The position numbers and the translations under genes were made by a program. A stretch of DNA of 11,881 nucleotides from a virus (lineage: Duplodnaviria > Heunggongvirae > Uroviricota > Caudoviricetes), in the IMG/VR virus record IMGVR_UViG_2579778791_000016, positions 1 to 11,881 of that record; one strand, given 5' to 3'. Positions 3,474 to 9,132 of the stretch are shown here, in pieces (the stretch's first letter is position 1; the number at the start of each line of letters is the position of its first letter). The notes under the pieces are model-generated. The model was given only the letters and a program-made list of their open reading frames with translations. It searched no databases and was not told the origin of the DNA.

Positions 3474-3648
3474 CAACGCCGGGAGCCGTGATTATGGCAT
3501 TCAGGCTCTGCTAAAAATGCCAGATAACATTCCGGCCAACCCCTGATTCAGGTTATAAATGACACAATATCTTGACAACATCCGTCACTGTCTGTCAGAA
3601 AATGTACTGCCAAGTATAAGTATCATGTGAAGTACATCTACCCGTTTT

Positions 3649-3684
3649 AGCCAGCGTCCTTCAGAGTGGGCGCTGGCTTTTTTT
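3649..3684 (+). terminator. Plus-strand-specific intrinsic terminator abutting the nanS-p stop codon, antisense to the late operon
   Basis: Plus strand AGCCAGCG-(12-nt loop)-CGCUGGCU followed by UUUUUUUAUUAU. On the minus strand the same hairpin is preceded by an A-run and followed by AAAACGGG, so it should not terminate late transcription. Confidence 0.5.
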
Positions 3685-3685
3685 A

Positions 3686-5536
3686 TTATGCTGCCGGTGC
3701 ATTTATCTCCAGCACCAGACTTTCTATCTCAACACCATACGCTGCATTTTTGGTAATATCCGTCAGCGTCAGCGCATTCAGCCCCAGTGTCAGACTGTCT
3801 TTTATGACCTGGAATGCCGGGCCAGCCACTCCATTCAGTTTCGGAGTAACCGTGGCACTGCCGGCGGTGAACACCAGCTCCAGCGTCTGCCAGTCGTTAC
3901 CGTAATCGCCGAACTCCCCCAGCTTCGTGTTTCCGGCTTTCCTGTGATGCATCAGATTCACTCTGCCGTCAGTGGTCTGAGTGAAGTGCGACATCAGGAA
4001 CGGATTACCGGTACCCGTCATCGCCACACCATCAGGAACGGGAGCGTCCGTATACAGATAAATCCCCAGCCCGAACTGATTGTTGGTCAGTGCGCCTGAG
4101 AGGCGGAACTTACAGGTCAGTCTGCCGCCCTGTGTCAGCAGGGTAATTGCGTCATCCACCGGATGCATCAGGGACCAGGTTTTATTGCTCTGCTTGGTGA
4201 TCTTAAATACACCATCTGACAACTGAATTCCGCCGTCCTTAATGGTCCAGCCCTGCGCAGCAGCATCTCCGGCTGTCGGCATCAGGGAGATTGTGCGTAT
4301 GGATGCATCTTCAGACGGCCCCGATGGCGTGTTGCCGCCGGGCGAGGGTTTGATTTCCGGTGCCTTACCACTGATGAAGGCTGAGGTGCGCCCGGCTGCG
4401 TTCAGAATAGCGGTTGCCAGACGATCCGGAATAATGCTCCTGCGCGCCCATGAACTGAAATGTGTCGGGCGGTTTGATGATACCTGGTTTCCATTCGTTC
4501 TCGATGCCGCACCGTAATATCCTGATGCCGGAATATCCGGATCTTCTGCCGGCGCGTTAGTGGCGGTATTGACGCCGTTACCGTCTGTCATGAAGGGCAC
4601 AAAATAAACGCCCTCACTCTCCCTGTTTTTATACCCGCCGTACACGGTGTCGTACTGGGTAGCGTATGTATTTTTCCAGTAATACGTCGTGTCACCACAA
4701 ACCCACGGCACATCTGCAGCACTGCCACCATGACACTGCGCGTTAAACACAGAGAGGTCAGCACGAAACTGCGTCAGCATGGCTGTAAACAGCGCAGGTT
4801 GCTGTGCGTAGGTGGCGGCGCTCATGTCAAACTCACCCTGCATCCAGCAGACGGCCAGCAGAACGTTTTTGGGATTTTTCTGCAATGCCGCTTTTGTGCG
4901 GGAAATCAGATCCTGATATAACGGCTTGCCCACCCCCCAGCGTGCCGAATCCTGACTGGCCCCCGTGGACTCGCTGAATGTCCCCTCCGCGCCCTGGGTA
5001 AATGCCGAACCACCACGACAGCATGGTACCAGCAGGATCCCCGCGTTATTCGGGATATACGGGAGCAGTTTTTTGGCAATATGTAAACCCTGACCGACAC
5101 AGCCGTACTGCCCTTTGCTCAGGTCAGCCCTCGGATGATTCAGCGTACTCATATCCTGCACATCATGCAGACAGTGGTCAGCCGGAATAATATCGTTATA
5201 TCTGCAGGCAGCCCCGCCCGGCGTCACTGTACTGCGGCGCGCCAGCTGTTTAATGCGCGGATCCGGAGCATCGTATGAATCCGGCAGCGGAAGCCCTTCA
5301 CCGTAAGCCATGGCATTGGACTGCCCGGCCAGTACGATGACGTAGTACCAATCCGGCTCAGATGAAGGGCCGACCTGTGCCTCTCCTTCAATAGCCACCG
5401 CCTGCATCAGTGTGTACGGCGTAATGGCAACCGGTCCGCCGTATGGCTGCCAGCCCTCTTTCAGTTTGTGTGTCAGCTTTTCCGCAAGGTCTGACGGCGA
5501 CGCCGCCCTGACAACATCGTAATGTTTAATCGACAT
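3686..5536 (-). CDS. nanS-p: Prophage sialate 9-O-acetylesterase (NanS-p / YjhS-like; N-terminal DUF1737-like region plus SGNH/SASA esterase domain)
   Basis: 616-aa ORF with ATG at 5536 and GGGAGA Shine-Dalgarno. Contains the SGNH block-I motif VIVLAGQSNAMAYGEG. Sits immediately upstream of the lysis cassette, as the nanS-p genes of Stx and related lambdoid prophages do. Confidence 0.75.
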   Translation of the reverse strand: MSIKHYDVVRAASPSDLAEKLTHKLKEGWQPYGGPVAITPYTLMQAVAIEGEAQVGPSSEPDWYYVIVLAGQSNAMAYGEGLPLPDSYDAPDPRIKQLARRSTVTPGGAACRYNDIIPADHCLHDVQDMSTLNHPRADLSKGQYGCVGQGLHIAKKLLPYIPNNAGILLVPCCRGGSAFTQGAEGTFSESTGASQDSARWGVGKPLYQDLISRTKAALQKNPKNVLLAVCWMQGEFDMSAATYAQQPALFTAMLTQFRADLSVFNAQCHGGSAADVPWVCGDTTYYWKNTYATQYDTVYGGYKNRESEGVYFVPFMTDGNGVNTATNAPAEDPDIPASGYYGAASRTNGNQVSSNRPTHFSSWARRSIIPDRLATAILNAAGRTSAFISGKAPEIKPSPGGNTPSGPSEDASIRTISLMPTAGDAAAQGWTIKDGGIQLSDGVFKITKQSNKTWSLMHPVDDAITLLTQGGRLTCKFRLSGALTNNQFGLGIYLYTDAPVPDGVAMTGTGNPFLMSHFTQTTDGRVNLMHHRKAGNTKLGEFGDYGNDWQTLELVFTAGSATVTPKLNGVAGPAFQVIKDSLTLGLNALTLTDITKNAAYGVEIESLVLEINAPAA

Positions 5537-5620
5537 CGAATTTCTCCCGTGTAGAGGAACAGAGTTAAAAAGCCGGAAGCGGAATCAAATCACAGGATGA
5601 CCATCTGCCAGTGGCAGGTC

Positions 5621-5649
5621 ATAAAAAAAAGGCTGCGCAATGCGCAGCC
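5621..5649 (-). terminator. Strong intrinsic terminator upstream of nanS-p; likely 3' end of the upstream cargo unit
   Basis: Minus strand GGCUGCGCA-UU-GCGCAGCC followed by UUUUUUUUAU. Confidence 0.65.
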
Positions 5650-6078
5650 AGAACTCACAAGGAAAATGATAAAAGGAATAACACTAGTGATGTACGCATG
5701 GCGCCTCCCGCTAAGTTCTGCAATGATCAAACAGAACTCGCTACGTGCCCTTAAAACTCGATCATTTAGCCCCTCCAAGGAGGATTCACCATGCGGTTGA
5801 TTTTTTAATAAACAGTAAACAAAAAAGTCAAGAATTATTCATTCTGTTCTTTCATCATCGGCCACAGCAATACCACAATGCCGCAGACCAGAGCGCCATC
5901 AGTCAGTACCAACATTATCCTGCTGGTGAAATCCATCATCACCATCACTAAAAGCAGGATCACAACAGCAAGCAGACACAGTTTATAAAACAATGTTCAG
6001 AAAACGCATTCAGCATGCCTAAGGTTCTATTCCTACGAATAGCCAACTTGCAACTTAAAATATTATTTATGCAGCCAA

Positions 6079-6795
6079 TTAAATTCTGGTCCTTACAATA
6101 TCAACCTGAAGATTCTTATCTTGTGCTGATTGATAAATGACAAACCTTTTACTACCTGCATTGAAAGAAGTAGACAAAACCAGACAATTATCATAACGAG
6201 CAAGAACATAATACCAACCATCATTATAATTAATCATTTCATATTCTTTCTTAAACTGTGGTTTGTAATATCCTGTCAGAAATGAAAAAAGCCAAAAATA
6301 TGCCACAAAAGCAATCATCACAATCTCAAAAAAATGTTTTTTTATAAATGGCTTATCATAGAAGCATGATACCGATAAAAATCGCCCATAAGATCTTATC
6401 GAAATTGTAACCGCCAGCGCAATCGCTGCTGACAGTAGCAAAAGAGGTACCTGAATCTTCTGTCTCAATATAGAAAACTCAATAATTGCCGGCACAAACA
6501 ATAATTCCACAGCAAAATAAAGGCGAAATACATTTAGCTCTTGCATAGAATGTTTTCTTTTCACTGCGAAAAAGAATACAACACCAATACCCCAACCGAT
6601 AAGAAATATAGCAATGACGATAACTGCAAAAAATAAACTTCTGGCAACATCATCAACACCTGCACCTACAATCCACCATGGGAAGCCGTAGTAAAAAGAA
6701 GTACCCCATCCATAGAAATAAGCACTCCCCCATCCAAGGCATCCCATGTAGGCAATAAAAAGTGAAGAACTCCTGAGCAGCGCACCATCCTTCAT
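6079..6795 (-). CDS. Uncharacterised polytopic membrane protein (about 5 predicted transmembrane helices plus a roughly 65-aa C-terminal soluble domain); AT-rich cargo gene
   Basis: Only long ORF in a markedly AT-rich block (track 6079..6837). Hydrophobic segments include LFIAYMGCLGWGSAYFYGW, LFFAVIVIAIFLIGWGIGVVFFFAV, FRLYFAVELLFVPAIIEF, LLLLSAAIALAVTISI and IVMIAFVAYFWLFSFLTGYY. Probable start is the ATG at 6795 (MKDGALL..., GGGGTGG upstream), because the first ATG at 6837 lies inside a promoter-like -10 element. No recognisable family. Confidence 0.6.
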   Translation of the reverse strand: MKDGALLRSSSLFIAYMGCLGWGSAYFYGWGTSFYYGFPWWIVGAGVDDVARSLFFAVIVIAIFLIGWGIGVVFFFAVKRKHSMQELNVFRLYFAVELLFVPAIIEFSILRQKIQVPLLLLSAAIALAVTISIRSYGRFLSVSCFYDKPFIKKHFFEIVMIAFVAYFWLFSFLTGYYKPQFKKEYEMINYNDGWYYVLARYDNCLVLSTSFNAGSKRFVIYQSAQDKNLQVDIVRTRI

Positions 6796-6832
6796 AACCA
6801 CCCCAATACAAGATGATAACATTGGCTTACAA

Positions 6833-6933: not shown

Positions 6934-6961
6934 TAAAAAAAACCCACTCGGCAGCGGGTTT
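6934..6961 (-). terminator. Intrinsic terminator about 45 nt downstream of the Q stop codon (candidate tR')
   Basis: Minus strand AAACCCGCU-GCCG-AGUGGGUUU (G-U wobble in stem) followed by eight U. The plus strand also has a partial T-run after the hairpin. Confidence 0.65.
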
Positions 6962-6994
6962 ATACATTTTTTACAACATACCAAATTTGCATGA

Positions 6995-7023
6995 AGTATA
7001 TGGCTTTTAATCCAGTTTTGCAA
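6995..7023 (-). promoter_or_regulatory. Near-consensus sigma70 promoter overlapping the 3' end of Q (candidate late promoter pR' with qut)
   Basis: TTGCAA (7023..7018) - 17 nt - TATACT (7000..6995) on the minus strand. The Q stop codon (7009..7007) lies inside the spacer. A -10-like TGGTATGTT sits in the initial transcribed region. Confidence 0.45.
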
Positions 7024-7696
7024 TATTTTGCTGTAAAAATGCTGCCTTTTGTTTTGAACGTGTTCTCGTCACAAGCAATAAAGCATCACTATCAAGCTGT
7101 AGAAAAATGTGCTTCATTGCAACCCAGCGTTCAGTAAATGTCTCGGACCAGTTTTTTGTTGTCACTCCCACCAATGATGCCAGTGTCTGGTATTCATAGG
7201 CCTCACGCCCTGCAAGTTCGCTCTTCACATCCTGTGCAGCCAGCCAGATTAACGTCTTCAGGCGATCCAGTGTCTTACCTGCAATTTTTCTGTTACTTAA
7301 CAAATCTTTAAACTCGCTCCATGCCCATTGCGTTATGGTGACCTGATGCCCCCATCGAACGCTTTCGCTGTAACACCAAAGCAACCATGCTTTCTGATGT
7401 TCATCGAGAGACAAAACCGCGCGGCGCCATGAAGAGGTTGAGAATTCAACCGGGCTGACCAAAGCAATGGATGAACCTTTTGCGTACGACTGCTTACCGG
7501 AAGTCGGCGTATTATCCCGCGTAATCATCTTGCCAGTTACCACATCCAGAATGCGCGGCTTCTTTCGTTTGTATGTACCAGTATCAAATTGTGCATGCTC
7601 CTGCCAGGCTTCGAGCTGGCCTTTCGTTGCTCCGTTCAAGTCAGCAGTAGCTGCCATAAGTTGCTCACGAACATACTGTAAATATTGGGTATTCAT
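7007..7696 (-). CDS. Q: Q-like late antiterminator (long-form Q family, about 230-250 aa)
   Basis: Positioned after ninI and before the late/lysis genes, with a promoter and terminator at its 3' end. Start taken at the ATG at 7696 (MNTQYLQYVREQ..., AGGA Shine-Dalgarno 8 nt upstream) rather than the track start at 7780. Family assignment rests on context and size, not on recognised motifs. Confidence 0.5.
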   Translation of the reverse strand: MNTQYLQYVREQLMAATADLNGATKGQLEAWQEHAQFDTGTYKRKKPRILDVVTGKMITRDNTPTSGKQSYAKGSSIALVSPVEFSTSSWRRAVLSLDEHQKAWLLWCYSESVRWGHQVTITQWAWSEFKDLLSNRKIAGKTLDRLKTLIWLAAQDVKSELAGREAYEYQTLASLVGVTTKNWSETFTERWVAMKHIFLQLDSDALLLVTRTRSKQKAAFLQQNIAKLD

Positions 7697-8172: not shown

Positions 8173-9132
8173 ATGAAAAAAAGTGTCATCGCTGGCGTCT
8201 TTATTGCTCTGTCATTTACCACGTGTTCAGCTATCGCGAACAGCCTTGCATTATCATTAGCAAATGATGATGCAGGGAAGTTTCAACCAATACTTAATGA
8301 TATTTATGGCAATAAACATGAAAACAGAGATGATTACTCACAAGGCTTATTTCTGGGATATAGCCACGATATCTCAGACTCGAGCCAATTATCTCTCCAT
8401 ATTGCGCAAGATATTTACTCTCCATCAGGCAGTAATAAAAGACACAACACAGCCGTAACTGGAGACAGAGCTTTTAGTGCATACACTCACACTGGTATTG
8501 AATGGAACTCCCTTGCGAATGACTGGATTCGCTATCGATTAGGTACTGACATAGGTGTTGTTGGCCCCGACGCAGGCGGTCAGAAAGTACAAAATAAAGC
8601 TCATGAGATTATTGGGGCAGAAAAATATCATGCATGGGATGATCAAATAGAGAATCGCTACGGTTATACTGTAAAAGGGATGCTATCCATGACACCAAGT
8701 ATGGATATTTTAGGTGCTAATGTTGGATTATACCCTGAAGTTTCTGCTGTTACTGGAAACTTATTTCAATATGTAGCATATGGCGCAACCATTGCCATTG
8801 GTAATGATAAAACCTTCAATTCGGATAATGGCTTTGGTCTGCTGGCTCCCCGTGGTTTAATGCATATGTCCGATACAAGCGGATTCAAATACAAGATTTT
8901 TGCAGGTATGGAAAGACGAGATGTCAATCGCAACTATACTCTCGAAGGAAAAACAATACAGACGAAACAAACAACAGTATCGCTAAACAAAACTGTTGAT
9001 GAATATCAAGTTGGCGCAACAATTGGGTATGCACCTGTAGCCTTCACACTAGCATTTAATAAAGTAACATCAGAATTCAAGACAGGGGATGACTATTCAT
9101 TTATAAATGGAGCAATCACCTTCTTTTTTTAA
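8173..9132 (+). CDS. lpxR: Outer-membrane beta-barrel protein, probably lipid A 3'-O-deacylase LpxR family
   Basis: Signal peptide MKKSVIAGVFIALSFTTCSAIA, predicted mature size 296 aa (the size I recall for mature LpxR), C-terminal aromatic beta-barrel signature ...GAITFFF, AAGGAAG Shine-Dalgarno. AT-rich gene with a long AT-rich upstream region, opposite in orientation to the flanking phage genes. Confidence 0.55.
   Translation: MKKSVIAGVFIALSFTTCSAIANSLALSLANDDAGKFQPILNDIYGNKHENRDDYSQGLFLGYSHDISDSSQLSLHIAQDIYSPSGSNKRHNTAVTGDRAFSAYTHTGIEWNSLANDWIRYRLGTDIGVVGPDAGGQKVQNKAHEIIGAEKYHAWDDQIENRYGYTVKGMLSMTPSMDILGANVGLYPEVSAVTGNLFQYVAYGATIAIGNDKTFNSDNGFGLLAPRGLMHMSDTSGFKYKIFAGMERRDVNRNYTLEGKTIQTKQTTVSLNKTVDEYQVGATIGYAPVAFTLAFNKVTSEFKTGDDYSFINGAITFFF

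Follow-up and report, generated by a model that had tools for sequence, protein, structure and literature searches.

PasD2, a divergent STnc100-related small RNA, and a DUF3927/TciB-like gene in the late region of a lambdoid prophage

PasD2, encoded by prophage PP2 of EPEC E2348/69 at NC_011601.1 741157-741328 (+), is an sRNA of 172 nt (Pearl Mizrahi 2021, PMC8550237 table S6). It has been confirmed by northern blotting, depends on Hfq for its stability and is among the most interaction-rich RNAs in RIL-seq, and its terminated product is abundant, stable and Hfq-bound in lysogens; the published start is an RNA-seq estimate and not a mapped 5' end (PMC8550237). The RIL-seq partners of PasD comprise both core and virulence mRNAs, with aceE, gltI, coaE, yhdW, spr, cesF and perB as candidate targets (PMC8550237). 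The proposed seed, UGUGAG, is complementary to the CUCACA motif of these targets (PMC8550237 fig. S5 and table), a motif only weakly supported by MEME (E values of 2.4e3 with PasD1 and 6.5 with PasD2; PMC8550237).

Several described systems stand close to PasD2 in sequence or in position. EcOnc13, from prophage Sp3 of EHEC O157:H7 Sakai, gave an Hfq crosslink peak at 901332-901382 and a northern signal of ~187 nt (Tree et al. 2014). Zhu, Shabalina and Storz reported that Q and LpxR are encoded within 10 kb of pasD and that in phage 2B8 pasD lies directly upstream of the esterase gene, and concluded that PasD and STnc100 have a common ancestor (2026, bioRxiv 10.64898/2026.05.13.724894). STnc100, a prophage sRNA of Salmonella and E. 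coli, is found like PasD2 after tciB/DUF3927 and before nanS-p or lysis genes. The convergent AgvB/AsxR sRNA pairs occupy the same PR' moron niche, between a moron gene and a conserved downstream ORF (Tree et al. 2014), and in PPyecE_EH1910 AgvB abuts STnc100 on the opposite strand.

The window analysed here, by which we mean the whole stretch of 11,881 nt, corresponds to the section of a lambdoid prophage that serves late regulation and lysis, and it reads along the minus strand. The nin genes and an LpxR-family moron on the plus strand are followed by Q, PR'/tR', a gene for a 247-aa protein and the region under study, and then by nanS-p and the genes for holin, endolysin and spanins. Over positions 5400-6200, phage 434 (OL657226.1) and many chromosomes of EHEC and EPEC match the window with 100% identity. 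In all likelihood the region under study consists of two separate, previously described features of the lambdoid late-region "moron" site (Table 1). These are the sRNA PasD2 and a DUF3927 gene, both of which are already known. We also note another published sRNA gene, PasC, at 3607-3684 (+), the convergent partner of PasD2 beyond nanS-p. A search for an AgvB/AsxR-like sRNA or a bidirectional terminator beside PasD2 gave neither an Rfam match nor a plus-strand T run, and the candidate was rejected; from the paper text we found no link between HnrS (EcOnc10-12) and the window.

Table 1. Coordinates of the features discussed, in window positions.
Feature	Coordinates	Strand	Remarks
LpxR-family moron	8173-9132	plus	upstream of Q
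Q82-type antiterminator Q	7007-7696		PR' and tR' come next
247-aa membrane protein	6079-6822		function not assigned; precedes DUF3927 gene
DUF3927/TciB-like small membrane protein gene	5835..5993	minus	52 aa, TTG start; Pfam and PHROG
Putative -35 element TTGACT of PasD2 promoter	5826..5831	minus	conserved layout
Putative -10 element TAAAAA of PasD2 promoter	5802..5807	minus	7 nt upstream of G5794
PasD2 sRNA gene	5623..5794	minus	172 nt; divergent STnc100-family member; identity to NC_011601.1 741157-741328
P1 5' arm GCAUGGUG	5787..5794	minus	pairs with 5696-5703 in minimum-energy fold and Rfam STnc100 consensus
Segment S1 AAUGAUCGAG	5757..5766	minus	single-stranded; predicted to pair with apical loop of P4, giving a pseudoknot
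Hairpin P4	5714..5738	minus	stem 5738-5732 with 5720-5714; loop 5731-5722 partners S1
P1 3' arm CGCCAUGC	5696..5703	minus	contains AUG of 14-codon ORF
14-codon ORF MRTSLVLFLLSFSL	5655..5699	minus	inside PasD2; judged non-conserved as coding
Proposed PasD seed UGUGAG	5654..5659	minus	overlaps UGA stop of 14-codon ORF; just upstream of terminator
Intrinsic terminator, PasD2 3' end	5623..5649	minus	stem 5649-5631; U8 5630-5623
Imperfect palindrome	5598..5621	minus	just after terminator; no assigned function
Sialate O-acetylesterase nanS-p	5536-3686	minus	

When the minus strand from 5794 to 5623 was aligned with PasD2 of E2348/69, 172 of 172 nt were identical, and no difference was seen in flanking genes, terminator or proposed seed. 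As in the window, the E2348/69 locus has Q, WP_001302581.1 (the 247-aa protein), WP_000499454.1 (DUF3927), PasD2 and the esterase. The published northern probe matches 5639-5662 (+) with one mismatch, the very one that its authors reported for PasD2. Q and LpxR are likewise encoded within 10 kb in the window, with the esterase gene directly downstream of PasD2. The promoter, 14-codon "ORF" and terminator, which the initial annotation had listed as separate elements without considering PasD2, are on this sequence identity a single sRNA gene.

PasD1 carries four substitutions relative to PasD2, together with an inserted T that puts the 14-codon ORF out of frame. EcOnc13 is a PasD1-type copy at the homologous position, with the holin gene next to it in Sp3 as against nanS-p in the window. 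In the Sakai copy its crosslink peak covers nt 107-157, the U-rich/seed region, which also contains most of the supposed 14-codon ORF; the northern estimate was ~187 nt and not 173 nt. Among 5426 complete E. coli genomes, 679 carry full-length PasD, about evenly divided between PasD2-like and PasD1-like copies.

No Rfam family matched the window at gathering thresholds. In E-value mode, minus-strand positions 5824-5620 gave a full-length match to STnc100 (RF02076, model 1-206; 41.4 bits, E 3.8e-7), short of the gathering score of 47 bits. By Rfam's criterion PasD2 is not a member of STnc100, and from the model match we regard it as a divergent relative. The two RNAs have in common the promoter layout, the conserved 5'-body helices P1, P2 and P4, and the pairing between S1 and the P4 loop. 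In PasD2 the CCGGGAGGCACCCGG hairpin is missing 7 nt, the P2 loop is shorter and the 3' seed/terminator module is unrelated to that of STnc100. Bona fide STnc100 copies (145 and 120 bits) follow a DUF3927 gene in phages PPyecE_EH1910 and Evi.

The element TTGACT (minus strand, 5831..5826), noted initially as weakly promoter-like, is present and very likely belongs to a promoter. A generic consensus promoter scan of the region did not call it; its significance derives solely from its conservation across relatives. We compared 43 unique upstream sequences anchored at the G of GCAUGG, and the family layout proved to be TTGaCt/TTGtCt, 18 nt, TAAAA[AG], 6-7 nt and G(+1), with T(T/A)AAAA as the most conserved upstream block and an extended TGn before the -10 block in STnc100-type copies. 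This layout precedes PasD and STnc100 copies even where their upstream sequences are of several unrelated kinds, and TTGACT is probably the -35 element of the PasD promoter. The predicted +1, G5794, agrees with the published RNA-seq start of PasD2; the ~187-nt EHEC northern estimate leaves some slack in the assignment of the start site.

The predicted fold of PasD2 has an energy of -58 kcal/mol (z -3.07). In 48 unique bodies helix P1 keeps all eight of its pairs, and bases change there only where a G-U or U-G wobble results; this conservation is one-sided and is not covariation, the 5' arm having been fixed by the search pattern. P2 is retained in PasD, where a C-G pair has become U-G and the loop is 3 nt long. 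The P4 stem carries compensatory changes at two positions (G-C/A-U and A-U/U-A/G-C), and S1 and the P4 loop covary in no fewer than four sequence classes. The S1-loop helix has a mean length of 7.24 nt; exchanging loops between types lowers the mean to 5.26 nt (sd 0.28), and none of 1000 swaps reached the observed value. The 5' body of the PasD/STnc100 family thus contains a covariation-supported pseudoknot, in which the segment after P2 is predicted to pair with the apical loop of P4.

The 14-codon ORF was found as first described, with its ATG at 5699, its TGA at 5655, the translation MRTSLVLFLLSFSL, and GGGAGG, 4 nt before the ATG, at 5709..5704. It had been called strongly ribosome-bound, a description that goes back to no observation and was based on the Shine-Dalgarno-like hexamer alone, which is predicted to be base-paired. 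To follow the frame across relatives, variation was needed that a first set of 80 DUF3927-derived loci, all at least 98% identical, was too uniform to supply. A pattern scan with 15 specified bases over species-representative genomes returned only chance matches in unrelated phyla; a longer gapped pattern run on viral contigs recovered family copies, and with reference loci these gave 208 PasD/STnc100-family copies, 102 of them unique.

Of the 102 unique relatives, 100 retain the AUG, and 47 unrelated peptides follow it, most of them running into or through the terminator. The peptide MRTSLVLFLLSFSL is restricted to the PasD2 type (44 loci); in the PasD1 type (48 loci) a 1-nt insertion leads to an unrelated 36-aa frame through the terminator. 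The ORF therefore does not show the conservation of reading frame that the initial annotation had named as its test. The AUG is conserved because it is located in the 3' arm of helix P1. GGGAGG is part of the conserved STnc100 motif CCGGGAGGCACCCGG, shortened in PasD; it pairs with CCUCCU at 5783-5778 in the minimum-energy fold of PasD2, and neither it nor the AUG is left unpaired in that fold or in the centroid. We conclude that the ORF, its AUG and the GGGAGG are very probably by-products of RNA sequence and structure.

These same features bear on whether PasD2 might be a dual-function RNA, which would act by base-pairing and also be translated from the AUG at 5699 into the hydrophobic 14-aa peptide, for instance when P1 opens. 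The close spacing of GGGAGG to the AUG and the near-universal retention of the AUG speak for such a reading, as does a RIBOseq study of EDL933 in which an STnc100 copy (STnc100_1), probably the one at the homologous locus, had a footprint/transcript ratio of 2.16, a value that could mean ribosome contact. That ratio does not discriminate, because the non-coding sRNAs CyaR (2.16), MicA (1.69) and RprA (2.82) score alike in the same study; moreover, the EDL933 copy is of the frameshifted PasD1 type. The confinement of the peptide to one variant and the diversity of peptides across the family weigh against translation, P1 with its wobble-compatible changes accounts for the retained AUG, and both the hexamer and the AUG are sequestered in the predicted folds. 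The spacing between hexamer and AUG also differs, with 4 nt in PasD as against 13 nt in STnc100, and in the Sakai copy Hfq crosslinks extend across the body of the ORF. We therefore consider a dual function very unlikely. Equally slight is the chance that PasD2, unlike PasD1, has gained a translatable 14-codon micro-ORF ending in its own seed and is a young dual-function sRNA; if this were so, ribosomes would gain access only when P1 and the anti-Shine-Dalgarno pairing open, and the RNA could not be translated and pair with a target at the same time.

Upstream of PasD2, the proposed small hydrophobic ORF turned out to be a real gene. The 36-aa frame, from ATG 5945 to 5835 on the minus strand, extends in frame to a TTG at 5993 to give 52 aa, with two hydrophobic helices. 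Pfam PF13064 (DUF3927) matches the 52-aa form with 53 bits (E 3.4e-14) and the 36-aa form with 51.2 bits, against a gathering cut-off of 25 bits, and the PHROG match is phrog_1470, "TciB-like" (E 2.5e-17). RefSeq labels the product a DUF3927 family protein (WP_000499454.1), and the curated phage 434 record names it TciB. The longer form is the real product: the Pfam match begins at residue 7, and the hydrophobic N-terminal helix made up of the first 16 residues is conserved, though with substitutions, in homologues (MFYKLCLLAVVILLLV versus MTVKLRLAVAALLLFL), including relatives with a GTG start. Among 20 aligned homologues D21, F22, T23, R25 and I26 are invariant, and the resulting D-F-T-x-R-I motif, DFTSRI in the window, is a conserved loop joining the two hydrophobic segments.

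TciB of phage P1 belongs to the same profile family (PF13064, phrog_1470) and has the same size, helices and DFTSRI motif. The window gene differs from it in coming after a 247-aa membrane protein and not after the TerB-like TciA, and in starting at a TTG without an evident ribosome-binding site. This TTG is the start codon in 98 of 98 loci of the window type. A second type, seen at 25 loci, starts with GTG, and this codon shares bases with the stop codon of TerB-like tciA (GTGA), which reads as a translational-coupling arrangement. Comparison of the window type with the GTG type over 47 codons gave dN/dS values of 0.42-0.68, suggesting weak to moderate constraint, and truncated DUF3927 alleles exist. 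The literature searched yielded no functional data on DUF3927 or tciB and no toxicity data.

The layout had been likened to a type I toxin, and with a small, very hydrophobic protein beside an abundant sRNA the module could be imagined as a type I toxin-antitoxin-like pair in which DUF3927 or the 14-aa peptide is the toxin and the neighbouring RNA the antitoxin. In an unbiased scan, DUF3927 was indeed directly upstream in 13 of 13 PasD-like copies; it was missing upstream in 89 of 112 STnc100-like copies. PasD neither overlaps the DUF3927 mRNA nor is antisense to it, being co-directional and downstream, and neither a promoter scan nor Rfam detected an antisense promoter or an RNA-family match over 5835-5993. 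The coupling of DUF3927 to TerB-like tciA in relatives, the truncated alleles, and the membership of this two-helix protein in a phage "moron" family and in no known toxin family all argue in the same direction, and we regard a toxin-antitoxin function as extremely unlikely.

The terminator proposed at the end of the region is real, with an 8-bp stem containing seven G-C pairs, a 3-nt loop and eight T, and its 3' end at 5623 is the published end of PasD2. Two terminator-like patterns were found in the region where 1.6 are expected, and it is the one at 5649..5623 that coincides with the end of the published RNA. The imperfect palindrome that follows was also present as described; its hairpin (-10.8 kcal/mol, z -1.95) is only marginally better than shuffles, 10 of 200 of which fold as well, and as a terminator it was rejected on both strands.

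A further suggestion had been that the 14-codon ORF and the terminator act as a leader-peptide transcription attenuator controlling nanS-p. The likeness to attenuators of the trpL and leuL type lies in the short ORF close to a strong terminator upstream of nanS-p, its stop falling 5-6 nt before the stem, and a repeat, GAGUUCUG, at 5740-5733 and 5655-5648 does offer two alternative partners for CAGAACUU. The helix between CAGAACUU and the second copy, which overlaps the seed, ends at 5650, so that it abuts the terminator stem without overlapping it; the stem is present in all predicted structures, and no minimum-energy or centroid fold contained an antiterminator competing with it. Since PasD2, in contrast to trpL and leuL, also lacks a conserved frame and any run of regulatory codons, since the same RNA and terminator occur with holin and not nanS-p downstream (E2348/69 PP4, O157 Sp3/CP-933K), and since the terminated product is itself a stable, abundant, Hfq-bound RNA, attenuation has next to no probability.

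We also observed that 3' ends are exchanged among these RNAs. Identical 5' bodies bear different 3' seed/terminator cassettes, and the PasD-type terminator and palindrome are found on STnc100 bodies as well, the palindrome travelling with this terminator even in such fused copies.

The published data and the sequence comparisons can be combined into a picture of PasD2 as an independent transcription unit that would begin directly after the DUF3927 stop codon. The expression of PasD2, its Hfq binding and its targets are taken from the literature; the promoter, the insulation of nanS-p and the read-through by Q are our own reading of the locus. A sigma-70 promoter (TTGACT, 18 nt, TAAAAA) would set the start of transcription at about G5794. 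The first ~100 nt would fold into the conserved pseudoknotted body closed by P1, and the 3' third would comprise the U-rich Hfq-binding stretch, the proposed seed UGUGAG and the intrinsic terminator ending at 5623. In lysogens PasD2 would be transcribed independently, bind Hfq with its U-rich tract and poly-U tail, and pair with CUCACA-type sites in mRNAs, a motif whose statistics are weak. The 52-aa DUF3927 protein, with its two predicted transmembrane helices, is presumably co-expressed with the upstream cargo gene.

Transcription from the PasD2 promoter would be kept out of nanS-p by the PasD2 terminator. Read-through of terminators by Q-modified polymerase is established lambdoid biology, and in lytic growth such polymerase arriving from PR' would read through the PasD2 terminator.

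PasD2 carries no annotation in the RefSeq records inspected or in the phage 434 record, and in the RefSeq records antisense hypothetical ORFs overlie it. The two long ORFs at 5590..5778 (minus) and 5745..5951 (plus), doubted from the outset, are not conserved and are not genes, and a 62-aa ORF over PasD2 in phage 434, labelled "membrane protein", is spurious, being frameshifted in PasD1 loci. The elements listed by the initial annotation are thus all present where it placed them, and its interpretation of them, a toxic peptide or an attenuator, was largely wrong.

The value of these observations is mainly for annotation, an experimentally shown and abundant regulatory RNA of EPEC and EHEC prophages having been left unannotated in those records. 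Recognising PasD2 spares the pursuit of a phantom peptide or attenuator. For the family as a whole, a conserved pseudoknotted 5' body is common to STnc100-family RNAs while their 3' seed cassettes swap.

The conserved 5' body shared by the PasD and STnc100 sRNAs appears to be pseudoknotted. In these bodies (window 5714-5766, minus strand, and the STnc100-family copies at loci L207-L326), the segment lying 3' of hairpin P2 is complementary to the apical loop of hairpin P4, and the two partners vary together in compensating classes (segment/loop: AUCAGC/GCUGAU, CUGGUG/CACCGG, AAUGAUC/GAUCAUU, and AAUGACC/GGUCAUU). The mean helix formed between segment and loop is 7.24 nt, as against 5.26 nt when the loops are swapped, and none of 1000 swaps matched the observed value. 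This pairing is absent both from the Rfam consensus line and from nested-structure predictions.

A second set of complementarities involves the PasD2 seed. The sequence GAGUUCUG is present in two copies on the minus strand, one forming the 5' arm of P4 (5733-5740) and the other overlapping the seed (5648-5655), and CAGAACUU (5713-5720, minus strand) is complementary to both. When the 3' half of PasD2 is folded alone, it is the seed-overlapping copy that pairs with CAGAACUU (-33.2 kcal/mol, z -4.4); such pairing could mask the seed.

Existing records cover PasD with protein annotations. In the GenBank record of phage 434, a 62-aa 'putative membrane protein', CPT_434_70, overlaps PasD2 and runs through its terminator, and its frame is shifted in PasD1 loci. 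Antisense to PasD, RefSeq has either a hypothetical protein of 132 aa (WP_012578864.1) or a pseudogene; PasD itself was left unannotated in every RefSeq record inspected and in that of phage 434. CPT_434_70, WP_012578864.1 and the antisense pseudogene all look like annotation artefacts. The initial annotation had considered the long minus-strand ORF here unlikely to be real, a view borne out by the breaking of its frame in PasD1 loci.

Features in and around the late region
Feature	Position	Strand	Remark
ORFs annotated over PasD	window 5590-5778; locus L004 1801-2199	-	existing records
PR'-like promoter (TTGCAA, 17 nt, TATACT)	window 7023-6995	-	
Strong terminator after PR'-like promoter, just downstream of Q	window 6961-6940	-	
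PasC sRNA gene	window 3607-3684	+	identity to E2348/69 PasC 78/78
Imperfect palindrome just 3' of PasD2 terminator	window 5598-5621	-	kept with PasD-type terminator

A further published prophage sRNA in the window, PasC, is encoded on the other strand from the late operon, in the interval separating the nanS-p stop codon from the holin gene. The published PasC probe matches exactly at 3632-3656, and the terminator consists of GCCAGCG...CGCTGGC followed by T7. At this site phage 434 and E2348/69 prophage PP2 have a tandem pair of related hairpin elements, one of which is PasA, whereas the window, which is 154 bp shorter here than either, has a single PasC-type element in place of the pair.

Near Q, the PR'-like promoter and its terminator (6940-7023, minus strand) would yield a short leader RNA resembling lambda 6S or StxS; the Rfam STnc240 match in this region is weak (28 bits vs a cut-off of 55).

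In phage PPyecE_EH1910, the anti-GcvB sRNA AgvB (96.5 bits; locus L086 1707-1768, minus strand) lies between tciB and nanS-p, where it meets STnc100 tail to tail, a convergent layout that the window lacks beside PasD2. In some DUF3927 homologues (proteins P0048, P0066, P0071; Escherichia albertii), a 7-residue unit (LEAGGWR) or CGIVGLWD has expanded in tandem within the loop or the second helix; in-frame repeat growth is therefore tolerated by this small protein.

The palindrome beyond PasD2 accompanies the PasD-type terminator in all contexts seen, and its stability represents a marginal gain over shuffles; a terminator role was ruled out for both strands. Among the STnc100-family copies (L207-L326), several unrelated 3' seed/terminator cassettes are found on the same 5' body (e.g. 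L208, L218, L213, L251, L232, and L253), and the PasD1-type terminator with its downstream palindrome is also joined to STnc100 bodies. These combinations suggest that the 3' cassettes of the family have been swapped through recombination at the conserved CACCAUGC junction.
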